Shown piece by piece: positions 1 to 58,854 of a DNA stretch of 64,000 nt. The notes beneath the pieces were generated by a model. The model ran no database searches, was not told the DNA's origin, and worked only from the letters and a program-made list of their open reading frames with translations. Numbering within the stretch: position 1 is the stretch's first letter; each line of letters opens with the position of its first letter. The position numbers were made by a program, and so were the translations under genes. The DNA comes from Parcubacteria group bacterium (GTDB lineage: Bacteria; Patescibacteriota; Minisyncoccia; Phycocordibacterales; Phycocordibacteraceae), in contig JAQBRE010000003.1 in NCBI GenBank assembly GCA_028286605.1, positions 17,275-81,274 on the forward strand, in the 5' to 3' direction.

Positions 1-2
1 AG

Positions 3-869
3 TATTTCTCAAATAGAATCGTCGGTGGCCAAGTAGTATTTGATGGATGTCTTCCGTTTGCGGATGCTATTGGCTTGATAGGGAAAAATCCTGATGGTTC
101 ACTCGCAATTAACCCTGAGCTTGCTACATTCCTTCCAAGTGAGGAGTACGCCAGATCGAAGATACTCAGCGGAGTGCTATCGATTCTGTCGATTGACCCA
201 GTCTTCGATGAAATCTTTTGTTCGGAGAACATCTCTTATGACATCATCTACCATCTAATCCAGATTGATGTATCCGCTTTTCCTCTCAAGTACGCGAATT
301 TCCGTCGGCTGCTTATCGACTTTGGATTCCTCACGCGGCACCCCGATAGGGGAATCAGGAAACTAATCGTCAACTCAAGGTTCAAAATAGACTTCGACAA
401 GTACATTCTTCATGAGGTTACGAAGAGGAAGATGGGTATAGAACACTTGGAAGCGATGTTGGAGCGTAACCAACTGCATGGCGCAGAGGCTGAGGACTTC
501 GTCCTTGCATTCGAGAAGGTGCGCTTAGTGAAGCACCCTAAAGTAAGTACGGTTGAAAAGATTTCTGATTACGATGTTGCCGCCGGCTACGATGTGGTCT
601 CTTATCGGGACACAGCCTCAAGCGAATATGACCGTTTCATCGAGGTTAAGTCACATTCTGGTGACCAGCGATTTTTCTGGTCTAGGAATGAAGTTGCCCA
701 AGCTAAACTCAGAAAGGAAACTTACTTCCTCTATCTTGTGGATCGCAGCAAGATGAATGCGGAGAGCTATGAGCCTCAAATGATTCAGAATCCCTATGAC
801 TTGGTCTTCTTAAATAATGAGGAGTGGTCAGGTGAGCCGCAGAAGTGGATTTTTCATCCAGTTGCCTAA
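3..869 (+). CDS. DUF3883-domain protein (PD-(D/E)xK-like nuclease-related C-terminal domain); 5' end probably truncated by window edge
   Basis: Frame is open from position 3 (no in-frame stop before the TTG at 75). C-terminal segment GYDVVSYRDTASSEYDRFIEVKSHSGDQRFFWSRNEVAQAKLRKETYFLYLV matches the DUF3883 signature (GYD[IV]xS...IEVK...SxNE...YxLY). Region is lower GC than the window average. Confidence 0.55.
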   Translation, partial: YFSNRIVGGQVVFDGCLPFADAIGLIGKNPDGSLAINPELATFLPSEEYARSKILSGVLSILSIDPVFDEIFCSENISYDIIYHLIQIDVSAFPLKYANFRRLLIDFGFLTRHPDRGIRKLIVNSRFKIDFDKYILHEVTKRKMGIEHLEAMLERNQLHGAEAEDFVLAFEKVRLVKHPKVSTVEKISDYDVAAGYDVVSYRDTASSEYDRFIEVKSHSGDQRFFWSRNEVAQAKLRKETYFLYLVDRSKMNAESYEPQMIQNPYDLVFLNNEEWSGEPQKWIFHPVA

Positions 870-911
870 TTTTTATTTACACATTTTCATTCTGTGAACT
901 CGAATAGGGTA

Positions 912-1370
912 TCAGTAATCAATTACTCTAAATTCGCTTAAGTTAACACTCATAACCGACAACCTATTCCCGCGCTGCAGCAACGTCATATCCTTGAGGC
1001 GCATATCCTTCTTAATCTGTTCAAGCCTTATCGGTTGCGCTAGTTTCTTAACGAAGGCGATATCTACCAAAAACCAGATGGGTTTTTCCTTTGTAGCTTT
1101 GGGGTCGTAGTACGGGCTTTTTGGATCAAACTGAGTCGGGTCAGGATACGCTTCGGAGGCGACCTTCGCCACGCCATACACGCCGGGAACCGGGCAGCTG
1201 GAGTGATAGAAGAGGACAGGGTCGCCAGGGCGCATGCCGTCGCGCATGAAGTTGCGGGCCGTATAGTTGCGGACGCCGGTCCATGGCGTCTTCTTGTCCT
1301 TCTTAAGATTGTCTATGGAGTAGCTGGTCGGTTCAGACTTTACGAGCCAGTGGCCTGGTTCAGGTTTCAT
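912..1370 (-). CDS. EVE domain (PUA-like) protein
   Basis: 152 aa; HWLVKSEP...YSIDNL...WTGVRNYTARNFMR...GDPVLFYHS...EAYPDPTQFD...KLAQPIRLEQIK is the classic EVE/DUF55 pattern. 4-bp overlap with downstream MazG-like gene indicates an operon. Confidence 0.75.
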   Translation of the reverse strand: MKPEPGHWLVKSEPTSYSIDNLKKDKKTPWTGVRNYTARNFMRDGMRPGDPVLFYHSSCPVPGVYGVAKVASEAYPDPTQFDPKSPYYDPKATKEKPIWFLVDIAFVKKLAQPIRLEQIKKDMRLKDMTLLQRGNRLSVMSVNLSEFRVIDY

Positions 1371-1714
1371 AACTCCGTATACTTCGTGTGCTTTCCCTTG
1401 GCTTTCTCGACAGGGTACTTCGTACCGTTCTTTTTCAGCTTCTTACGGAATGCGTCAGAGATATCTATCTCAAGATCGTTGCTCATAAGGAGTACCCAAT
1501 ACAGGACATCAGCGAGTTCTTCAGAGATTTCAGTCTTGTGAGATGCTAGGTGCGTATCAACCTCTTCCTTGTTTTTCCACTGGAAATGCTCGAGCACTTC
1601 TGCTGCTTCGAGCGAAAGGGAAATCGCCATATCCTTGGGATTATGGAACTGCTTCCAGTCCCGTTCGTCGCGGAAGGCGGTAACCTCGGCGGTTAGATCC
1701 TCTATTCGTGCCAT
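1367..1714 (-). CDS. MazG-like nucleotide pyrophosphohydrolase (NTP-PPase, all-alpha)
   Basis: MARIEDLTAEVTAFRDERDWKQFHNPKDMAISLSLEAAEVLEHFQWK...EISEELADVLYWVLLMSNDL matches MazG/YpjD-type NTP pyrophosphohydrolase family; start chosen at ATG 1714 (ORF-track TTG at 1729 is the alternative). Confidence 0.7.
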   Translation of the reverse strand: MARIEDLTAEVTAFRDERDWKQFHNPKDMAISLSLEAAEVLEHFQWKNKEEVDTHLASHKTEISEELADVLYWVLLMSNDLEIDISDAFRKKLKKNGTKYPVEKAKGKHTKYTEL

Positions 1715-1733
1715 GATGAAATGATACAATGAA

Positions 1734-1762
1734 TTGACTTTAATGAATATGTGTCATAGATT
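1734..1762 (+). promoter_or_regulatory. sigma70-like promoter candidate (TTGACT-N17-TAGATT) in divergent intergenic region
   Basis: TTGACT at 1734-1739, 17-nt spacer, TAGATT at 1757-1762, immediately upstream of the GC-rich segment 1806-2060. Confidence 0.3.
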
Positions 1763-1850
1763 ATACGTTCTGGACGCTTGGTTCAGTACCTGATCTTGGG
1801 AGTACTTAGTGCATTATCAAAGAGATGTAAATCGTCGCGACAACGCCGGC

Positions 1851-2057
1851 ATGGCGGGTAAGAATCCTGGCCATCACGGCCGCCGCAACTTGGCCCGCAA
1901 GACTACGCTGTGCGGCACGAGCGCTTTCGACCCGCGCGCCGCCCTCGCCGACAACACGCCGCAGCCGATCTCGCGCCACTTCCGCAAGCTCATCAAGAAG
2001 GGCTGCTGCGGCTGGCACGCTTTGAGCGAAGCCGCGTACGTCTCGTTGCCGAACTAG
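1851..2057 (+). CDS. hypothetical small protein in anomalously GC-rich segment (possible unconventional antitoxin partner of downstream MazF-like gene)
   Basis: 68-aa ORF MAGKNPGHHGRRNLARKTTLCGTSAFDPRAALADNTPQPISRHFRKLIKKGCCGWHALSEAAYVSLPN ends 5 nt before a perfect 12-bp hairpin terminator. The segment is about 68% GC inside about 45% GC DNA. No recognisable fold; an ORF on the opposite strand also exists, so coding status is uncertain. Confidence 0.2.
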   Translation: MAGKNPGHHGRRNLARKTTLCGTSAFDPRAALADNTPQPISRHFRKLIKKGCCGWHALSEAAYVSLPN

Positions 2058-2062
2058 ACGAT

Positions 2063-2100
2063 GGGCCCCGCACCTTGGTGCGGGGCCCAATTCTTTTATA
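2063..2100 (+). terminator. rho-independent terminator (gggccccgcacc-ttg-gtgcggggccc + T-rich)
   Basis: Perfect 12-bp stem with 3-nt loop followed by aattcttttata. Confidence 0.7.
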
Positions 2101-2125
2101 TTCTCTCGATATTTACTCTATCTGC

Positions 2126-2539
2126 ATGGTGTATGCTCTTCGAGCTATGCCGGAGACAAAAGATTTTGATACATGGAATGAATCTAAGAAACTACTCGAC
2201 ACTCAGGCGGGTACTAGATTTACGCATGCGCGCGAAGTGTGGTGGTGTTCTCTCGGCGTCAATATTGGAGCAGAGATAGATGGAAAGAATGAAAATTTTG
2301 AGCGACCGGTTGTGATTATGAAAGTATATAATCGCGACATGGTGCTTGTCCTGCCGCTCACCAGTAAGAAAAATGATAATCGATTTCATTGCTCAATTCG
2401 AGTTGGTGATCGTATTTCCTGGGCAAAGTTAACTCAAATACAGGTCATCAGTACCAAGCGACTTTTACGTAAAATAGATATGGTGAACGAGACTGATTTT
2501 AAAAAGCTCAAACGAGTTCTTATTAACTCAATTAATTAA
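2126..2539 (+). CDS. PemK/MazF-family endoribonuclease toxin-like protein
   Basis: REVWWCSLGVNIGAEIDGKNENFERPVVIMKV...VLVLPLTSKK...KLTQIQVISTKRLLRKIDMVNETDFKKLKRVL aligns with MazF/EndoA ([26 protein letters not shown]...ITAQ...EQIRTIDKQRL). Start assigned to ATG 2126; the upstream part of the ORF is the GC-rich segment. Confidence 0.65.
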   Translation: MVYALRAMPETKDFDTWNESKKLLDTQAGTRFTHAREVWWCSLGVNIGAEIDGKNENFERPVVIMKVYNRDMVLVLPLTSKKNDNRFHCSIRVGDRISWAKLTQIQVISTKRLLRKIDMVNETDFKKLKRVLINSIN

Positions 2540-2543
2540 AGAC

Positions 2544-2655
2544 GAATTCCCGCATCTCTGCGGGAATTCTCGGAGGCCGAAGCCATAATGTAACTTTTTA
2601 CAGTTACGCACGGCAAACGCATTTCTGCGTGAGCCTCGGAGGCCGAAGCCATAAT
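2544..2655 (+). repeat. intergenic hairpins plus duplicated 20-nt direct repeat TCGGAGGCCGAAGCCATAAT (2570-2589 and 2636-2655)
   Basis: gaattcccgc-atctct-gcgggaattc perfect hairpin (2544-2569); direct repeat copies 66 nt apart, each ending in a CATAAT -10-like hexamer; second small hairpin acgca-tttc-tgcgt between them. Confidence 0.6.
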
Positions 2656-2680
2656 AAGAGTATGATAGCAGATACGCGAT

Positions 2681-3271
2681 ATGGGTCAAACAGAGCACTA
2701 TGAAATCAAGGAATCCGCACGCGCGAAGCACGTGCGGATAGATATATACCCCGATGGGCGCGTCGTGGTGACGAAGCCTCTTCGCTTGCCGATGCTCATG
2801 GTTGAGGCGTTCGTGCGATCACGGAGGAAGTGGATAGAGGAGACTGTGGTTAAATTCGAGGCACGCCGCAGGCGTGCCGAAACAAAGCGAGCGAAACTCG
2901 GCCTGCCGGCACCTGAACCGCTCCCGAAACCGCGTCGCGGTTCCAAGGCATACAAAGACGCCGTGAAGGCGGCTCGCTCGCTCGCAGCAAGTCACCTCCA
3001 GCATTTCAATCAGCACTACGGTTTCCGATACGGCTCCATCTCTATTCGCAATCAGAAGACGCGATGGGGAAGCTGTTCAGCTGCCGGTAATCTTTCCTTT
3101 AACTACCGTATTACATTCCTTCCGCCAGAACTGCAGGACTACCTGATAGTCCACGAGCTCTCACACGTGAAAGAGCACAACCATTCTGCAAAGTTCTGGG
3201 CGCTCGTCGCACAGACCGTTCCGGACCATGTGCGCCGCCGTACCCAGCTTCAGGCGTACGATATGCATTAA
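2681..3271 (+). CDS. DUF45/YgjP-like zinc metallohydrolase (M48-family fold, HExxH)
   Basis: 196 aa; conserved [16 protein letters not shown] and preceding WGSCS...[11 protein letters not shown]...YLIVHEL typical of YgjP/DUF45 (SprT/WLM-like). Confidence 0.7.
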
Positions 3272-3277
3272 TAAAAA

Positions 3278-3300
3278 AGATGCCCGACAACCGGGCATCT
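3278..3300. terminator. hairpin terminator agatgcccg-acaa-cgggcatct (A-run upstream, weak U-run downstream)
   Basis: Perfect 9-bp stem; T-run lies on the minus-strand side (ttttttatt), so it is a stronger terminator for minus-strand transcription from the 3300-3690 region. Confidence 0.5.
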
Positions 3301-3689
3301 TCAGAAGTTTGACGAGTATACGTCTCCGACTGAGGTTCTCACCATGTCATGGGCATCGCATGAAAGGAAGTTCACGCGCTCGAGTGATCAGGCATGGCCT
3401 GCACTATCCATGGTGGTTGCGAGTTCGCGCGGGGATACATGGAAGGGTTCTTCCCAACCAATCCAGCATCTGGCCTGCACACACAGCTCCTTCGGTTTCG
3501 CTCGCCGGTCCCCCAGTATATTCAGATGCCTTCTTGGAGGCGTTCTGGAGGTCTGCCATCGTTATAGCACAGAAAGCCATTCACACGCTTCATGAAGTAA
3601 AGTTGAAGGAAATATAAAGAAGGAGTAGAATATCCGCTTGGTCGCTTCGGCGACCGCTTGTTATTTATCTGTAACCTCTTGGGGGAATC

Positions 3690-4799
3690 ATGCTTGATAC
3701 TATGTCTGATCGCACTATCGAAACCAATAAAGAGCCCTATGTCGCAGGCTCCGTCCGCGATCTATCGAAATTCATCTTGGACCGTAATCGCACGCAGAGC
3801 GACGAGTTTTGCAATGCAAGTGCGCGTTTGGCGCGTCAGCAGTATCGCAGCGTGCACCCTACAGAAATTGCCGCACTGAAATGCATGGACGGCCGGCTCA
3901 ATCTCTCTCTTATGACAGAGACGCCGGTTGGAATCCTGCACCCGTACCGCAACATCGGCGGCACGTTCGACATGGGCTGGCCGTTTCTGGCTCAGCTGCT
4001 TAAGGAATGGGTCTATGTTTCGACCACGAAAGGCCGAGACTGCCTCATGCTTATGACCTATCACTATTCAAAGGGTGATTCCCATCGTGGATGTGCTGGT
4101 CACAATTACGACACCGACGCTGCGCGAGCAGGCGCTGCCGAACTGGTAGTGCAGGCGGCTCGCGTGTTCGGTCGTCCGTATCGTGCGGTTCATCCCATCA
4201 TGGTGGGTATTGAAACAGATGACGAGGCGCTCGTGTTCCATAGCGAAGAAGGAGAAGCCTTCTCGCTTGCGGACAATCTCGACATGACACCAGGAATGCT
4301 GGCCCAGCATTTCGCGCATCTCTATCCAGAGATGCGCGAACGGATCCTCATTGATCTTCTTGAGTTGGTGAAAGGAAACCAGCGTCATATCAAGAAGGTA
4401 CGTGCAGCGAACCGTATGCCTATAGACCTGAACCATCGCGAACAGATTATCGCCGTGGGTCGCGGGTTCGATTGGCTGCATCTGCCGAACATGGCGCTCA
4501 TCGTTGGCCCGTACGGGCTCGAGTGGCCGAAGGCAGTTGGTACTGCGGGGAAGATCATTCTAAGCAACTTGAAGGAAGGGAGGCTTGATCCCGAAGCGGG
4601 TCGCATGCTGCTCATCGCTAAGCTTGCTCGTGAAGAACGCGGAAGCTACGGCTGGAATATGGCCGAAGAAGAAGCTCGCTTCGTAACGCGCGAGGCGCAC
4701 CGAGCTCTTTTGAGCACGGTGCCTGAACTGCTCGATAACAACTTCACTATCCATACGGGCGTGGTCGACGCATCGACGCGTTTGCTGCATCTTATCTAA
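3690..4799 (+). CDS. beta-class carbonic anhydrase-like protein with approx 170-aa C-terminal extension
   Basis: CMDGRLN (CxDxR) at res 65-69, ILHPYRNIGG (beta-CA RN.GN motif) and HRGCAGH (HxxC) at res 132-135; spacing matches beta-CA zinc ligands. SD-like GGGGGAA 4 nt upstream of ATG. Confidence 0.5.
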   Translation: MLDTMSDRTIETNKEPYVAGSVRDLSKFILDRNRTQSDEFCNASARLARQQYRSVHPTEIAALKCMDGRLNLSLMTETPVGILHPYRNIGGTFDMGWPFLAQLLKEWVYVSTTKGRDCLMLMTYHYSKGDSHRGCAGHNYDTDAARAGAAELVVQAARVFGRPYRAVHPIMVGIETDDEALVFHSEEGEAFSLADNLDMTPGMLAQHFAHLYPEMRERILIDLLELVKGNQRHIKKVRAANRMPIDLNHREQIIAVGRGFDWLHLPNMALIVGPYGLEWPKAVGTAGKIILSNLKEGRLDPEAGRMLLIAKLAREERGSYGWNMAEEEARFVTREAHRALLSTVPELLDNNFTIHTGVVDASTRLLHLI

Positions 4800-4818
4800 A
4801 TTCGTCCTCGGACGAAAA

Positions 4819-4856
4819 AGACCGCACATCCCTTCGGGAGTGCGGTCTTTCATTTT
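4819..4856. terminator. bidirectional rho-independent terminator (agaccgcac...gtgcggtct + ttcatttt)
   Basis: 9-bp perfect stem with nested tccc-ttcg-ggga; A-run before and T-run after. Confidence 0.7.
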
Positions 4857-4913
4857 GTAGCGGGGGCGTACCTAGAATGGTTGCCACCCTTTGTCTTTCA
4901 TGCGCTGCCGGCT

Positions 4914-5093
4914 TCATTGATCTTCATTGCGGTGGTCTTGTTTGGACTGCTTCTGCCAACTCTTTTCTTTGGGAGGAAGGTATGGCAGCTTCGGCATACC
5001 TGAGCTGGTGCGCTCGGTTTCCGGCTGTGCGGCGACAGCCGACAAGGCGAGCAATGCTGCGCCCGTGATTCCTCGTAAAACGATTACCTTCAT
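4914..5093 (-). CDS. small secreted/lipoprotein-like peptide (60 aa, signal-peptide-like N-terminus)
   Basis: MKVIVLRGITGAALLALSAVAAQPETERTSSGMPKLPYLPPKEKSWQKQSKQDHRNEDQ; GGAG SD 8 nt upstream of ATG at 5093; remainder of the 201-aa ORF upstream has no coding signal. Confidence 0.3.
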   Translation of the reverse strand: MKVIVLRGITGAALLALSAVAAQPETERTSSGMPKLPYLPPKEKSWQKQSKQDHRNEDQ

Positions 5094-5177
5094 CTGATGT
5101 ACTCCGATTGACCCGCTGAAACCATACCATAATCGTTGCGTTGTGCATGGGGGAGAGTGATACCGTAGAATGGAGGA

Positions 5178-8018
5178 ATGAACGCCAAGGAGAATGCACG
5201 CAGCCATGAGGCGACCTTCAAGGAGGCCTATGCGAAGCTGAACCCGGCCCAGAAGAAGGCGGTGGATACCGTTGAAGGACCGGTGCTGGTGATTGCCGGC
5301 CCAGGTACCGGCAAGACGCATATCCTGACGCTGCGCATCGCGAACATCCTGAATGTAACGCAGGCGAATGCCACCAATATTCTGGTGCTTACGTTTACGG
5401 AAAGCGCGGCGCGCACGGTACGTGCGCGCCTTTCGAATTTGATAGGCGAAGCTCCTGCGCGCGACGTATTCATTTCCACTTTCCACGGCTTCGCCGAACA
5501 TCTGCTGCAGCAGTATCAAGATTCATTTCCGCAGGCTATCGGGAAGCGGCTCGCTGGCGATGTAGAAAGCGCGCTGCTGTGGCGCGAAGTATTAGATACC
5601 GAAGAGCTCGTCGCGCTCCGTACTACGAAGAGCCCATACTTCTATCTGAAGGATCTTTCCATGCTTCGTAACGATTTGCTACGCGAACGCATCACTCTGG
5701 ATGCATACCGCGCATGGGCGAATGAAGAAGCGGATCGCATCAAGAGCGACGAGTCGTTCACGTATGTGCGAGACAGCAAACATGGCGCGAAAGGTACGAT
5801 GAAGCCGGAGGGCTTCAAGAAGCTCGAGCGGTTGGAAAAAGTATTCGAAGCTGCGCGCTTGATCGAAGCGTACGAAGCATTGAAAGAGGAACGCGACGTA
5901 TATGACTTCGCGGACGTATTGCGCATTGCCGTTGATGGCTTAGCGCAAGATCCGGAATTGCGCGCGACGATTCAGGAGCAGTATCAGTACGTGCTTGCAG
6001 ACGAGCATCAGGATGCAAACGCATTGCAGCATGCGCTGCTGGATGTGCTTGCCTATGACGAGCATCCGAATATCTTCGTGGTGGGGGATGAGAAGCAGGC
6101 CATATATCGATTCCAAGGAGCGGACAGCTCAGGTTTCGGCAGTTTTATGGAGCATTTTCCTCGTACCGAGGTGATAGCGCTCGATACGAGCTATCGCTCG
6201 CGTCAGGGCATTCTGGACGCCGCACACGCCCTTATACAGGGCGTTCCAGCAGCGAATGGCGCCCATATGCAGCTGGTGGGTTCAGAGCTTCCGGCGAGCA
6301 TTTCAGTGCTTGCAGCGCCCGACCCGTTGGCCGAACGAGACCAGATTGCGCAGCTCATTTCTGACGCGATTGATGGGGGGACGGAGCCGCACGAAATCGC
6401 CGTCATATCCGCGCGCAACAGTACCGCAGACCAGTTCGCAGACGCTTTGCAGGCGCGCGGCGTACCGATGCTTCGTGCGGGCGATGTCCTATTAAGTAGC
6501 CGTCCTATCATGCGCGCGATACTTGCGTTGATGCGCGCGGTTGCGGACCCGCTTGATTCTGCCTCGCTGCGCGAGGCGCTGCTTGCGCCGTGGTGGCCGC
6601 TCACGCTCACCGAGCGCGCGGAACTTCTGCGCCGGAATCGCGACAACGATCTCCCGCTCTCGCTTGAAACGAGCGTGCCACAAATTTCAAAGACAATAGC
6701 GTCGCTTCGCGACGCCGTACTCACCGAAGCTCCGCTCCCGCTTCTCTCTAAGATTCTCGTTGAATCCGGCGCACGCGCGTTCCTTCTTTCACACGCAGAC
6801 TACTTCGAAGACATCACGCTTATGCGCAAAGTGTTTATGCATATCGAAGAACTTGTCGCCCGCAATCCGGATCAATCCTTTGCAGACATCGTCCGTACAT
6901 TCACGCAGGCGAATGAGCATGGCCTCGAGAACGTGAAGACGAGTATCACGCTAACGGAAGGGAAGGTGACGGTTATAACCGCGCACAAGGCGAAGGGAAT
7001 GGAATTCAAGAAAGTATTTGTCGTAGGAATGAACGCACGGCAGTGGGAGAAGGGCGGCATGCCTGCAAAGATCCCTTCGCCCGTGGATCAGACCCGAAGC
7101 CTTGAAGACATCACGAAGCTTTTCTATGTGGCAATAACGCGTGCGAAAGATGAGCTCGTATTTTCATATGCAGTGGAAAGCGCGGACGGTCGCGACACGC
7201 CGCCCTCAGCACTACTACCAGAAAGCCTTCCTGCTATCGCACCCAGCTTCGATCCGTTGCCGGTGCTGCATACGACCATTGAAGCATCGAAGCTCGTATG
7301 CGAGCTGGTGCATGAATTCCTCACCAAGGATGGTCTCTCGCCCTCTGCATTCAATGAGTATCTGGAATCACCAGCGACATTCTTCGCTCGTCGTGTACTG
7401 CGCCTGCATGAGGCAGAGGCGCCCGCAACGGCGATAGGAATCGCCGTACACGCCGGCATCGCTGCGTACCTGGAAGCGAAAGACGAAGATGCTGCGTACG
7501 CCGCGCTGACTCGCCAACTGAAGAAATCCCTCCTGCAGCGTAACGCCGCGTATGACCGCGTCGTTACGCACGCACGCGAAAGCCTCGCGAGCTACATCGC
7601 TCACGACGGCACGCTGAAAGAACCTATCGCTATCGAGAAAGCCTATTCAATAAGCCAGACAATTGCCGGCCATGATATCAAGCTGCAGGGAAAGGTGGAT
7701 GCGATTTTCAATACGCCGAACGGTGAATGCATCGTGGATTTCAAGACCTCCAGCGACGTCCATATAAAAGATGAGAAGCACGCGCGCCAGCTCGCATTCT
7801 ATGATCTGCTGCTTCGCGCGAACGGACACAACACCACGACGGCAAGCATCGTGCAGGTAGGTCCTGAACATGTAGAAGAATTTCCCGTGCCGCTGAACGA
7901 CGAAACGCGCAGCGCGCTCGTGCAGACACTCGAAGAAGTTATCACTGAACTCTGGGATGGCACCTGGCGCAAGGGCGAACCTTCCGTCTACGACGACCTC
8001 CTCAAGCTTTTTATATAA
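5178..8018 (+). CDS. UvrD/PcrA-family superfamily-1 DNA helicase fused to C-terminal PD-(D/E)xK (RecB/AddA-like) nuclease domain
   Basis: Helicase motifs I AGPGTGKTH, II VLADEHQDAN, III GDEKQAIYRFQGA, IV TSYRS, V-VI VITAHKAKGMEFKKVFVVG; C-terminal GKVDAIFNTPNGECIVDFKTS...QLAFYDLLL is a RecB-type nuclease motif. GGAGG SD 4 nt upstream. Confidence 0.8.
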   Translation: MNAKENARSHEATFKEAYAKLNPAQKKAVDTVEGPVLVIAGPGTGKTHILTLRIANILNVTQANATNILVLTFTESAARTVRARLSNLIGEAPARDVFISTFHGFAEHLLQQYQDSFPQAIGKRLAGDVESALLWREVLDTEELVALRTTKSPYFYLKDLSMLRNDLLRERITLDAYRAWANEEADRIKSDESFTYVRDSKHGAKGTMKPEGFKKLERLEKVFEAARLIEAYEALKEERDVYDFADVLRIAVDGLAQDPELRATIQEQYQYVLADEHQDANALQHALLDVLAYDEHPNIFVVGDEKQAIYRFQGADSSGFGSFMEHFPRTEVIALDTSYRSRQGILDAAHALIQGVPAANGAHMQLVGSELPASISVLAAPDPLAERDQIAQLISDAIDGGTEPHEIAVISARNSTADQFADALQARGVPMLRAGDVLLSSRPIMRAILALMRAVADPLDSASLREALLAPWWPLTLTERAELLRRNRDNDLPLSLETSVPQISKTIASLRDAVLTEAPLPLLSKILVESGARAFLLSHADYFEDITLMRKVFMHIEELVARNPDQSFADIVRTFTQANEHGLENVKTSITLTEGKVTVITAHKAKGMEFKKVFVVGMNARQWEKGGMPAKIPSPVDQTRSLEDITKLFYVAITRAKDELVFSYAVESADGRDTPPSALLPESLPAIAPSFDPLPVLHTTIEASKLVCELVHEFLTKDGLSPSAFNEYLESPATFFARRVLRLHEAEAPATAIGIAVHAGIAAYLEAKDEDAAYAALTRQLKKSLLQRNAAYDRVVTHARESLASYIAHDGTLKEPIAIEKAYSISQTIAGHDIKLQGKVDAIFNTPNGECIVDFKTSSDVHIKDEKHARQLAFYDLLLRANGHNTTTASIVQVGPEHVEEFPVPLNDETRSALVQTLEEVITELWDGTWRKGEPSVYDDLLKLFI

Positions 8019-36126: not shown

Positions 36127-36642
36127 TTACCGCGTAAGGCAGAATTCGCTTGATTCAGTAATGGCTGATTCAGCTGCGCCAGGTGCACAGACGGTGATGC
36201 GACCTGTCGAAGCGCTCTCTGTGATGGTGTATTTCGACGTGTATTCTTCGTCGCTTGAAGCACAGGCAGCTGAAGTACAGGTATTCGTTCCGTCTTTCGG
36301 GTCAGTGGGCATTTCTGAAATGAAGTTTGGAACGAGACATGGTCGCAAGTCGTACGCATTTCCACCTCCATTACCTATAAATTCAGTTTCATTCGGCAAT
36401 GGGTTTAGACAGGTACCGACCTGATTATTAAAGATGCCTTTATTCTCTGCAAGGCGTTCTCCAATAGCGTTCAGGATCGCATTCACATCGCTTTCTCGTT
36501 GCGCATTGCGCGCCTCGGCAAATTGACGCAAAGGATTGATAGCAAGAAGCACGATGCTTGCCAGTACGGCAATCATGCCGATGACGACCAATATTTCGAT
36601 GAGGGTGAATCCTTGAGCAGGAATTTTTCTTCGCGTGTGCAT
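36127..36642 (-). CDS. type IV pilin (prepilin-type N-terminal cleavage/methylation domain)
   Basis: N-terminal GFTLIEILVVIGMIAVLASIV class III signal; C-terminal Cys pair. Confidence 0.8.
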   Translation of the reverse strand: MHTRRKIPAQGFTLIEILVVIGMIAVLASIVLLAINPLRQFAEARNAQRESDVNAILNAIGERLAENKGIFNNQVGTCLNPLPNETEFIGNGGGNAYDLRPCLVPNFISEMPTDPKDGTNTCTSAACASSDEEYTSKYTITESASTGRITVCAPGAAESAITESSEFCLTR

Positions 36643-36740
36643 AGGTATACGTGTTATGGGTATACCTTTAGTTTGAAAGAATACGTATCCGTTTCATATG
36701 AATATACGGGTACTAACCGCTTTGCCGCTCGAGGTTTTCT

Positions 36741-37163
36741 TTATATTGCGTTCACTTCCTTCCAAGATGTGATTGTGGGAACCCCAAAAACACCCGGCAT
36801 GTTTATGTGGCCCTCAATGCGCACCGAAGCAGTACGTGCAGAGGCGGTTGTGATGACCGTCGCGTCTAAGGCTATTATTGTGATACTTACGATATGACAA
36901 ACATGCGTGGGGTCTGTAAACACATCGATACCTGTGCTTGGTATGTGATAGGTGGTTGGATCAATAGTGAGTGAATATGCAGTGGCATACAAGCAGGACA
37001 GAGCTTGATACCGTGCCTGCAGGTGTGCTCCGTAATCTGATGTATCAAAGCGAGCAAGCAGTGCCGTCGTTCCGGCATTTAGCGTATATAAGGCAAGAAG
37101 AAACGCTATGATGAGTGCCGATGCAAGGGCGATATATCCGTTCTTTCTTTGGAGCGCTCTCAT
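36741..37163 (-). CDS. pilus-associated membrane protein (pseudopilin-like, non-canonical N-terminus)
   Basis: N-terminal hydrophobic helix IALASALIIAFLLAL; located between pilin genes with 4-bp overlap. Confidence 0.4.
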   Translation of the reverse strand: MRALQRKNGYIALASALIIAFLLALYTLNAGTTALLARFDTSDYGAHLQARYQALSCLYATAYSLTIDPTTYHIPSTGIDVFTDPTHVCHIVSITIIALDATVITTASARTASVRIEGHINMPGVFGVPTITSWKEVNAI

Positions 37164-37576
37164 GGTAAATCTATATACGTACGTCCAGTAAAGGTGCGCA
37201 TGAGCACCTTTCCGTCATCCGTGTGCGCAGTCAGAGTGAAGGAACTGTCGACGAACGCCGGTTCTCCCCCAGTCTTGCTCGTCTGTATGAATTTCAAATC
37301 ATGCACCTGCACCTGGTTTCCGCTAACTGCTTGTCCTGTTGGAAATCCTTGCAGAAGCGTTGAGCTAGACAGATGGAAAGAAGAAGCGGCTCCGCCGCTT
37401 CCGATTGTGTAGTCGATCGTCTCGAGAAGGAACGTGCCTTCTTCTAAGAGAAGTGACTGCGTTTCAGTGCGCGCCGCAGCGGCGCGCATGCCCCCAAGAG
37501 CAGGAAGTACACCACTCATAAGTAATCCGAAGAGGCCCAGATATACTATCGTTTCGATAAGAGTGAAAGCACGCAT
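37160..37576 (-). CDS. minor pilin / pseudopilin (prepilin-type N-terminal domain)
   Basis: AFTLIETIVYLGLFGLLM N-terminus. Confidence 0.7.
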   Translation of the reverse strand: MRAFTLIETIVYLGLFGLLMSGVLPALGGMRAAAARTETQSLLLEEGTFLLETIDYTIGSGGAASSFHLSSSTLLQGFPTGQAVSGNQVQVHDLKFIQTSKTGGEPAFVDSSFTLTAHTDDGKVLMRTFTGRTYIDLP

Positions 37577-57789: not shown

Positions 57790-58353
57790 TTATTCGACGA
57801 GAAGCGCAGCTTGGTCGGTCAACTCATCAATTGATTTGTAAATTGGAAAATCATGTTCGAGCGCTGCGCTGAAGTTGTACCTGATCTGGCTCAGGCCAGG
57901 GAACCCAGCTTCAGCAGCGATAAGAACCTTCAACGTCTTGTCGTACATCATCTGGCCGCGCCACTCGCCGAGTTCCTGATAGGAATCCCGAGCGTATGGT
58001 TGACCATCGGTGCGAGGACGCGTTCGGCTTTCGCAGGGAAGGTTGAAGAGGATCGCTCCGCCGCGTCGTCCTTCTGCTTTTGCTTTTGCGGCCCGCCTTA
58101 GATAGTAGCGCTCGTATGAGAGCTGGCGTTCAAAGTATTCCTCGTCCCCTTCAAGGCGATACCTGTAAAGCGGATGTCCTAAGCTATATCTGCACGGAGT
58201 GATGATGATGCAATCAGGCACTTTCTTGGCGAGTATCACGCTGAGCTCGCTCTGATGGTCATCACCACCGCGAATGGGTCCGGCGATGAAGAACAGAGGA
58301 TTTCTCGGGAATTCGTTCAGATCTACGAACGTATTGGGAAGGATCAATTTCAT
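57790..58353 (-). CDS. 2'-deoxynucleoside 5'-phosphate N-hydrolase (DNPH1/Rcl)-like protein, nucleoside 2-deoxyribosyltransferase superfamily
   Basis: LFFIAGPIRGGDDHQSELSVILAKKV matches DNPH1 motif (YFCGSIRGGREDR...); 187 aa with C-terminal extension. Confidence 0.5.
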   Translation of the reverse strand: MKLILPNTFVDLNEFPRNPLFFIAGPIRGGDDHQSELSVILAKKVPDCIIITPCRYSLGHPLYRYRLEGDEEYFERQLSYERYYLRRAAKAKAEGRRGGAILFNLPCESRTRPRTDGQPYARDSYQELGEWRGQMMYDKTLKVLIAAEAGFPGLSQIRYNFSAALEHDFPIYKSIDELTDQAALLVE

Positions 58354-58392
58354 TTCCGTCTCCTGCGTTTGATTCTGCCTAGACCCTACCGC

Positions 58393-58854
58393 ATGTGGTA
58401 TGAACGTGCAAAGAAGGAGACAGGGTTTTGCTATAGTGTGGCAATGGTACTTTCGGACAATAAGCTCTGGCTTTCACAGAAGACATTCGTGTTCAATACA
58501 GAAGGAAAGTTCCTGACGTTGTTCAGGACCGAGACCGCGCCTACGCGGCCCTGTTGCTGGGACCTGCCCGGCGGCGTCTTCGAGCTCGGCGAAGACCCTG
58601 AATCAAGCGCACGACGTGAGATACGAGAGGAAGCCGGTATTGAGGTTACCGACATGGCTCCGCTCGCGCTTGAAGGTTCGTATACTCCTGCGCAAGACTT
58701 CGTCGTTACCGTTGCGTACCGAGCAAATGCCGTGAGCACAGACATTACGCTTAGTTATGAACACAACGAATACAAATGGGTTACGCCGGCAGAATTCCTT
58801 GAACTGAAGTCATCGGATAAATGGATGCAGATCGTGCGCGCGAATCTTCTTTAA
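58393..58854 (+). CDS. NUDIX hydrolase
   Basis: Nudix box LPGGVFELGEDPESSARREIREEAGIEV. Confidence 0.8.
   Translation: MWYERAKKETGFCYSVAMVLSDNKLWLSQKTFVFNTEGKFLTLFRTETAPTRPCCWDLPGGVFELGEDPESSARREIREEAGIEVTDMAPLALEGSYTPAQDFVVTVAYRANAVSTDITLSYEHNEYKWVTPAEFLELKSSDKWMQIVRANLL

Follow-up and report, generated by a model that had tools for sequence, protein, structure and literature searches.

Backbone genes and strain-specific cargo around a stand-alone EVE gene: a probable insertion hotspot in a Parcubacteria chromosome

We report the analysis of a 64-kb stretch of DNA (hereafter the window) from a Parcubacteria metagenome-assembled genome (MAG), the left 3.3 kb of which, the region in question, holds genes for a DUF3883 nuclease-type protein, a stand-alone EVE protein, a MazG-like nucleoside triphosphate (NTP) pyrophosphohydrolase, a PemK/MazF-fold protein and a YgjP/DUF45 metallohydrolase. 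A first-pass annotation had taken these five for a single low-GC accessory island concerned with modified bases, an interpretation that, overall, is partly supported. Every one of the five domain assignments (DUF3883/NOV_C, EVE, MazG-like, PemK/MazF and YgjP/DUF45) is confirmed by Pfam, but the left 3.3 kb is a patchwork of backbone genes and strain-specific cargo, not one modified-base system. In the reading that we prefer, and to which we attach a probability of roughly 70%, the region is a recombination or insertion hotspot of the Parcubacteria chromosome rather than a single functional island. Its components are mostly ordinary, EVE, MazG and YgjP being ordinary members of their families, and five defence-flavoured domains within 3 kb do not in themselves make a system. 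The most useful results of the work are the architecture of the hotspot, an rpoD-EVE-YgjP-UvrD neighbourhood of one Parcubacteria lineage in which defence modules would be swapped, and a recurrent, apparently uncharacterised cassette, similar to the Hma defence system, that starts outside the window.

A syntenic backbone and its variable slots

The backbone order in this lineage, as read in four syntenic relatives (L085, L164, L165 and L166), is (rpoC-dnaG-rpoD)-slot A-EVE-slot B-YgjP/DUF45-slot C-UvrD/PD-(D/E)XK, with protein identities across the four loci of 62-81% for EVE, 63-71% for YgjP and 55-83% for the UvrD/PD-(D/E)XK protein. In the window, the backbone is represented by the EVE gene (JWM39_649; 912..1370, minus strand; 152 amino acids; PF01878, E = 3e-56), by the YgjP/DUF45 gene (2681..3271, plus strand; 196 amino acids; PF01863, E = 1e-42), which is followed by a terminator hairpin at 3276-3302, and, as the right flank, by a gene for a fusion protein of UvrD helicase and PD-(D/E)XK nuclease (5178..8018, plus strand; Pfam and NCBIfam matches). 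The assignment of YgjP/DUF45 as an HExxH metallohydrolase follows from PF01863 together with the motif HELSH in the translation.

What surrounds these genes is different in each relative. Slot A is empty in L085 (EVE 62% identical), where a sigma-70 (rpoD-like) gene adjoins EVE and where YgjP and UvrD lie on the other side; in L164 (81%) it is occupied by an AIPR abortive-infection protein, with YgjP on the other side and the contig ending before UvrD. L165 (78%), on the part of which that was read there is no rpoD, carries a weakly matching reverse-transcriptase-like protein, Vsr, Dcm and a MutH-like protein in slot A, and YgjP, the 369-amino-acid protein p369, UvrD and a DsbA-like protein on the other side of EVE. 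In L166 (78%) slot A holds a DUF2779 protein and a 1235-amino-acid SNF2 protein, and YgjP and UvrD again lie on the other side. Slot B, which separates EVE from YgjP, likewise varies in content among the four relatives, and MazG, orf82, MazF and the DUF3883 gene are missing at the locus in all of them.

Because of this synteny, we regard EVE, YgjP and UvrD as the backbone and the low-GC genes as cargo in two variable slots. Slot A, downstream of EVE, would comprise positions 1-869 of the window and approximately 5.2 kb of cassette further to the left, whilst slot B (1367-2540) would contain three unrelated items, namely a MazG of the DCTPP1 type, a high-GC ORFan unit and a solitary MazF-fold protein of phage/plasmid type. 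EVE and YgjP would be vertically inherited chromosomal genes, whose adjacency to the cargo would reflect the position of the hotspot and not a demonstrated cooperation. The junction of cargo and backbone in slot A falls in an AT-rich spacer of 42 bp (870..911, unstranded; 28.6% GC, from sequence and composition) between the DUF3883 and EVE genes, the convergence of which had been correctly observed in the first-pass annotation. Conservation in synteny, which the same annotation had named as the mark of a core locus, is found for EVE and YgjP (four of the four relatives) and not for the DUF3883 cassette, MazG, orf82 and MazF, which are strain-specific in that they are absent from these close relatives at the same position; the proposed island thus divides into an accessory part and a syntenic one.

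The description of the left 3.3 kb as distinctly low in GC holds for some of its genes and not for others. The dip is real, bases 1-3300 having a GC content of 48.9% against 52.7 +/- 2.0% in the other 3.3-kb windows of the 64 kb, of which 4.5% lie lower (minimum 47.8%); it is, however, carried by three genes, DUF3883 (45.6%), MazG (48.0%) and MazF (40.1%), whereas EVE (51.2%) and DUF45 (55.8%) are normal for the genome. The GC-rich insert that interrupts the dip is equally genuine, positions 1809-2090 reaching 64.5% GC and exceeding all 400-bp windows elsewhere in the 64 kb. Since the core gene frr (41.9-42.5 kb) also sits in a kilobase of 43.7% GC, low GC alone is not diagnostic of accessory DNA in this genome. 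A further low-GC patch at 36127-37576 (36-37 kb, 45.9% GC) contains genes whose products bear an N-terminal methylation motif as in type IV pilins/pseudopilins, and elsewhere the window contains housekeeping genes, amongst them those for HisRS, LysRS, ProRS, MurF, PBP2 and an FtsI-like protein.

As to signs of mobility, tRNA genes are absent from the window over its first 57 kb, and a scan of the proteins encoded in 1-8018 and on contig L169, which overlaps the left end of the window, showed no integrase. Rfam returned nothing credible in 1-5200, either at the gathering thresholds or at E <= 1. Strain L002, which comes from another sample, differs from the window by 20 single-nucleotide polymorphisms (SNPs), all of which lie at 1385-1661 inside MazG, the next 3 kb being identical. 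This clustering indicates a recombination breakpoint, or tract boundary, inside MazG and near its 5' end.

Several observations weigh against the hotspot, or against the mutual independence of its parts. The synteny rests on four readable relatives only, and the left boundary of slot A lies outside the data, L169 stopping 573 bp to the left of the methylase gene of the cassette without rpoD. SNF2 and nuclease together make up two of the five slot A cargoes, and in archaea a stand-alone EVE gene adjoins methylase-DUF499-SNF2/nuclease systems, the same gene set as that of Hma (Bell et al. 2020, PMC7641849); EVE might conceivably be linked in function to the cassette. On the other side of EVE, the lists of top matches for EVE and MazG share contigs of the same source and size (NCBI, 3913 bp; JGI, 15211 bp; Logan, 11506 bp; Logan, 1856 bp), the candidates carrying the protein pairs P0005/P0243, P0023/P0246, P0087/P0245 and P0062/P0266, and co-localisation of the two genes probably recurs in about four close relatives. 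The ATGA overlap between MazG and EVE, moreover, suggests that the two would be co-translated and that their juxtaposition is more than random.

A recurrent methylase/SNF2/DUF3883 cassette

The window opens within the DUF3883/NOV_C PD-(D/E)XK nuclease gene (JWM39_648; 1..869, plus strand, with the reading frame open at base 3), of which it holds the last 288 codons only (PF13020, E = 4e-13). The genes upstream are carried by L169, a contig from the same sample as L001, the last 1221 bases of which are 100% identical to positions 1-1221 of the window. The plus-strand operon of L169 encodes, in order, a C5 cytosine methylase of 566 amino acids (PF00145, E = 7e-36), a protein of 468 amino acids, an SNF2/Helicase_C ATPase of 657 amino acids and the DUF3883 protein, so that the first three cassette genes lie to the left of the window. 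The complete DUF3883 protein has 326 amino acids, and a protein 100% identical to it was found (P0121). It begins with an ATG that is placed 17 nt ahead of the stop codon of SNF2; the two are separate open reading frames (ORFs) in a +1 frame relation, and the start codon is conserved.

The same four-gene cassette is found in L172/L173 and in L175, with the same order, the same 17-nt overlap and identities of 56-72% for all four proteins; across L169, L172/L173 and L175, the sizes of the proteins are 560-566, 464-468, 657 and 324-326 amino acids. The flanks of the L172/L173 and L175 copies are unrelated, and contain neither EVE nor MazG, MazF or DUF45. In L175, a gene for Vsr, the customary companion of an active Dcm, stands directly upstream of the cassette methylase. 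Two contigs from the viral catalogue (L170/L171) carry a distant p428-SNF2-DUF3883 trio (identities of 38-40, 45 and 30%, respectively), which is preceded by genes for a C5 methylase and for a DpnII/BanI-like endonuclease. The DUF3883 gene is not a partner of EVE and MazG but the last gene of a cassette that is found elsewhere without EVE. Modification-dependent restriction in association with EVE was for this reason rejected: the EVE protein is stand-alone, no two relatives have the same genes beside it, and it is lacking where the cassette occurs elsewhere.

The DUF3883 protein has more than 1000 homologues, and among the 120 listed most are of 322-338 amino acids (range 286-351), the few named sources listed spanning Parcubacteria, Chitinophagaceae and Verrucomicrobiae; a search of plasmids gave no match. 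DUF3883 is a member of the PD-(D/E)XK superfamily (PMC3424549), and the protein encoded here has both the PF13020 domain and intact D...(D/E)xK residues, D235 and E252-V253-K254 being invariant in 26 homologues; by analogy, these residues would be catalytic. In the AlphaFold model (predicted local distance difference test, pLDDT, 85) a helix-rich N-terminal part and a long helix precede residues 236-324, which form mainly beta-strands with two helices. Foldseek searches with this model gave only weak matches, for the N-terminal part, to winged-helix proteins and to FokI/Nt.BspD6I (E >= 0.015), on which we do not rely. For the 468-amino-acid protein (L169, 2320-3726), searches of Pfam, PADLOC, NCBIfam, PHROGs and the sequences of the PDB gave no match. 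A motif, GI(I/V)IDGNRR, is conserved in its close copies in L169, L172 and L175, and the IIDGNRR within it may resemble the 'DGxxR' of ParB/sulfiredoxin-type domains.

Judged from its genes, the cassette resembles a mobile unit of the restriction-modification kind. The Dcm-type C5 cytosine methylase would mark the host DNA, the SNF2 ATPase would translocate on unmarked DNA, and the DUF3883 protein, by analogy with Hma, would nick or cut DNA without the 5-methylcytosine (5mC) mark through its PD-(D/E)XK site.

EVE, MazG and MazF: alternative readings and surroundings

The EVE protein is closely similar to structurally defined members of its family, aligning with PSPTO5229 (PDB 2eve) at E = 4.5e-41 and with human THYN1 at E = 3e-31, in addition to its match to PF01878. 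It is 53-62% identical to stand-alone EVE proteins of Burkholderiales and Xanthomonadales. In an alignment scan of reference genomes and metagenomes, which was used as a negative control for linkage to MazG, the relatives among the matches listed (49-62% identical) were mostly from Proteobacteria; none was found in the viral catalogue or viral contigs. Fast-evolving EVE domains have been associated with defence contexts, and conserved proteobacterial EVE proteins with operons of a housekeeping type (Bell et al. 2020, PMC7641849). By its sequence, the protein studied here is of the slow-evolving, highly conserved PSPTO5229/THYN1 type, and by analogy its ligand is most likely a modified cytosine, whether of DNA or of RNA. 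A second EVE protein, P0003 (JWM39_897), 83% identical and with the same MAG prefix, is encoded on another contig (121.5 kb); either the two are paralogues or the bin combines DNA of two strains.

The neighbouring MazG gene (1367..1714, minus strand; 115 amino acids, with an alternative TTG start at 1729) encodes an all-alpha NTP pyrophosphohydrolase of the DCTPP1/RS21-C6 type, as judged from PF12643 (E = 2e-18), from acidic metal-binding helices and from full-length alignments with an archaeal pyrophosphatase (PDB 4qgp, E = 5e-21) and with DCTPP1 (6sqw, E = 6e-17). Some of its relatives are annotated as dCTP diphosphatase by JGI, and viral contigs held only relatives of 43-56% identity. Since proteins 68-83% identical to it, nearly all of about 115 amino acids, occur in more than 100 clusters from Patescibacteria, the sequence comparison marks it as a common conserved gene of that group and not as exotic cargo, unusual only in its position beside EVE. 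By analogy, it probably hydrolyses dCTP or 5-modified dCTP in a house-cleaning role.

It is unlikely that MazG and EVE constitute a true two-gene operon for the handling of 5-methylcytosine nucleotides, in which MazG would hydrolyse 5-methyl-dCTP that is salvaged or released by turnover and EVE would bind nucleic acid containing 5mC. The bacterium, like other Patescibacteria, is presumed to be a scavenger of nucleotides. The 4-bp overlap that the first-pass annotation reported is real, an ATGA on the minus strand at 1367-1370 joining the MazG stop to the EVE start, a Dcm-type methylase is encoded nearby, and contigs of the same source and size appear in both match lists for about four relatives. 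The activity reported for DCTPP1 on 5-methyl-dCTP (PMC4491611), together with the full-length similarity of MazG to that enzyme, and the reading of 5mC and 5-hydroxymethylcytosine (5hmC) by EVE proteins of the THYN1 type (PMC7641849) point the same way. The comparative evidence points the other: the pair is not generally conserved. Of roughly 160 further loci with EVE, comprising L085, L164, L165 and L166, seven Patescibacteria reference genomes and some 150 proteobacterial or metagenomic loci, none had MazG close to EVE by tblastn and a family hidden Markov model, with the exception of L131, in which MazG lies approximately 8.6 kb away. In L164 and L165, moreover, the place upstream of EVE is taken by another gene, which is divergently oriented; the substrate preference is deduced from distant mammalian homologues only, and the contig matches are indirect. 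Even so, an EVE/DCTPP1-like coupling would be a lead on the handling of methylated nucleotides in a bacterium of reduced genome.

Two wider readings draw in the cassette. That of the first-pass annotation, in which one integrated defence island would have EVE sense modified bases on behalf of DUF3883, MazG remove modified dNTPs, and MazF and DUF45 supply further defence, appears highly improbable. All of the domains are indeed present, EVE converges on the cassette at a distance of 42 bp, DUF3883 can be the catalytic domain of endonucleases dependent on 5mC/5hmC, such as YenY4I (PMC6765204), and an archaeal stand-alone EVE gene adjoins SNF2/nuclease-methylase systems (PMC7641849). Against this, the cassette stands without EVE in L172, L175, L170 and L171, and EVE without the cassette, beside AIPR, beside Vsr-Dcm-MutH or directly beside rpoD; the EVE protein is of the conserved PSPTO5229/THYN1 type and not of the fast-evolving type linked to defence; the cassette has a methylase of its own, which fits the restriction of unmodified rather than modified DNA; and DUF45 is a backbone gene of normal GC. 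In the window, the models of PADLOC match the DUF3883 domain, and that only partially, and the generic UvrD helicase, but none of them matches EVE, MazG, MazF or DUF45. The DNPH1-like/NUDIX pair at 57.8-58.9 kb, to which the annotation had appealed as a further sign of modified-nucleotide handling, survives as regards NUDIX (58255-58854; PF00293, E = 6e-16) but not as regards its partner, the putative 'DNPH1-like' ORF (187 amino acids; 57790-58353, minus strand) having no match in Pfam or NCBIfam.

The second reading is that the cassette is an uncharacterised, widespread ATP-dependent restriction system and that its Dcm-type methylase, the THYN1-type EVE protein and the DCTPP1-type pyrophosphatase form a '5mC economy'; taken jointly, we hold these two propositions to be quite unlikely. 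A theme of 5-methylcytosine shared by the methylase, EVE and the DCTPP1-like enzyme is suggestive on sequence grounds, and is made more plausible by the Dcm-type methylase encoded just beyond the left edge of the window and by the DCTPP1 type of the MazG; an obligatory coupling of methylase, EVE and MazG is not what the comparative data favour. If such an economy were real, MazG and EVE would prevent scavenged 5-methyl-dC nucleotides from entering the genome and so preserve the fidelity of the mark by which the SNF2/DUF3883 system would recognise self, and the gathering of defence cargo beside EVE would be explained. An insertion hotspot in which EVE is a fixed neighbour of changing cargo remains the reading that we favour.

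The GC-rich unit of slot B (1734..2089, plus strand; from composition and a scan for promoters and terminators) consists of a promoter-like site (1734-1762), orf82 (1809-2057) and a strong hairpin terminator (2062-2089), and is followed by the gene of the solitary PemK/MazF-fold protein (2126..2539, plus strand; 137 amino acids), which at 40.1% has the lowest GC of the region. The MazF protein matches the phage 'MazF-like growth inhibitor' family phrog_9567 (E = 3e-16) and has homologues on plasmids of Campylobacter and Helicobacter; no solved MazF structure was matched by sequence (best E = 0.6). That orf82 and MazF are a conventional type II toxin-antitoxin pair, with orf82 as the antitoxin, would suit the position of orf82, which immediately precedes MazF in the same orientation, and its likely coding nature, since its frame has a coding-like, 3-periodic GC (0.57/0.53/0.80) and is predicted by gene callers in two assemblies, as 82 and 68 amino acids. 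We nevertheless judge such a pair very unlikely, for the terminator at 2062-2089 separates the two genes, their GC contents (64.5% against 40.1%) argue for different origins, orf82 has no homologue among 1.84 billion representative proteins and no match in Pfam, PADLOC or PHROGs, and the MazF homologue in prophage CJIE4-3, which lies between the terminase and portal genes, has no antitoxin annotated beside it. A recognisable antitoxin or a fragment of a known gene was dropped as an identity for orf82, there being no homologues, as was a structured RNA in the GC-rich segment (fold z = -1.4, not significant). A type II MazEF module was likewise rejected, the upstream ORF being an ORFan behind a terminator and there being no downstream candidate antitoxin before ygjP.

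Between MazF and ygjP, a scan for repeats and hairpins revealed an intergenic element (2544..2655, plus strand), in which a hairpin (2544-2569) is accompanied by two perfect copies of a 21-nt direct repeat, CTCGGAGGCCGAAGCCATAAT; the copies (2569-2589, abutting the hairpin, and 2635-2655) are unique in the window, with zero expected by chance. This element may carry promoter or operator sites of ygjP. In L164 (1472-1879) and L165 (7530-7916) we also observed a gene for a protein of 128-135 amino acids, 61% identical between the two, with no Pfam match, that is divergent from EVE and absent from the whole window.

Slot C, between YgjP and UvrD, contains p369 both here (3690..4799, plus strand) and in L165, where it is 54% identical, a Pro_CA_2 protein in L164 and a SulP transporter in L166, contents that hint at a theme of inorganic-carbon or anion uptake. 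The 369-amino-acid p369 protein has a weak match to carboxysome carbonic anhydrase (Pfam and NCBIfam) and no relatives in a scan of reference genomes. In the intergenic DNA between DUF45 and p369 (3272-3689), blocks are conserved with L165 though the flanking proteins are only 54-66% identical; they correspond to the terminator of DUF45, to a predicted promoter (3603-3631) and to a UUCG hairpin, CTTGGTCGCTTCGGCGACC (3637-3656), which is conserved without a change and lies approximately 35 nt before the p369 start. The hairpin region may be a regulatory element in the 5'-untranslated region of the carbonic-anhydrase-like gene.

Comparison with known proteins and defence systems

The EVE protein shares with PSPTO5229, PP5205 and THYN1 the form of a single EVE domain in a protein of approximately 150 amino acids. 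Its surroundings set it apart from the proteobacterial contexts described by Bell et al. 2020 (ZapA-ssrS-YgfA and TsaD-GpsA-YciI), as it lies here between rpoD and YgjP-UvrD. With DCTPP1/RS21-C6 and the archaeal enzyme 4qgp, MazG has in common two acidic helices, EaaE and EEx(x)D, and an aligned C-terminal KYT(E/D)L tail; unlike DCTPP1/RS21-C6, it is a bacterial protein of 115 amino acids, without the eukaryotic N-terminal extension and with a stop codon that overlaps the start of EVE. The MazF protein has the PemK fold of MazEF/PemIK (PF02452, E = 3e-15), but differs from these systems in an N-terminal extension of approximately 35 amino acids and in having no recognisable antitoxin.

The DUF3883 protein resembles PD-T4-1, PDC-S36 and Tiamat (TmtA) in its C-terminal nuclease domain (E = 5e-15, 5e-12 and 2e-12, respectively), the alignments covering only the 100-120 or so residues of that domain, whereas the N-terminal two-thirds and the operon context are unrelated. 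Membership of PD-T4-1 was rejected, since the alignment is confined to positions 227-348 of the 383 in the model and so covers the nuclease domain only and not the full length.

The closest comparison is with Hma, in which HmaA, an SNF2 helicase fused to NOV_C/DUF3883 that protects against phage T4 through its nickase activity (PMC11232893), is accompanied by the DUF1156 methylase HmaB and the DUF499 ATPase HmaC, a system that entered PADLOC as a candidate (Payne 2021) and was tested by Liu et al. 2024 (PMC11232893). The cassette likewise combines a methylase, an SNF2 ATPase, a DUF3883 nuclease domain and one more large protein, and, like Hma, it sits in an insertion hotspot of defence genes, where a stand-alone EVE gene adjoins it here too. 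It differs in that helicase and nuclease, which form one polypeptide in HmaA, are separate genes with a 17-nt overlap; that its methylase is of the PF00145 C5-cytosine type, HmaB being of DUF1156/COG1743; that the 468-amino-acid protein has neither DUF499, as in HmaC, nor any other Pfam match; and that EVE lies outside the mobile unit. Hma models were not among the reported PADLOC matches of the SNF2 and DUF3883 proteins. Because of the split between helicase and nuclease, the PF00145 methylase, the lack of a DUF499 protein and the lack of a match to an Hma model, we do not count the cassette as a member of Hma; by analogy, it would be Hma-like in its proposed function, and this recurrent combination of a C5 methylase, a 468-amino-acid protein, an SNF2 ATPase and a split DUF3883 nuclease, as yet apparently uncharacterised, is a candidate anti-phage system.

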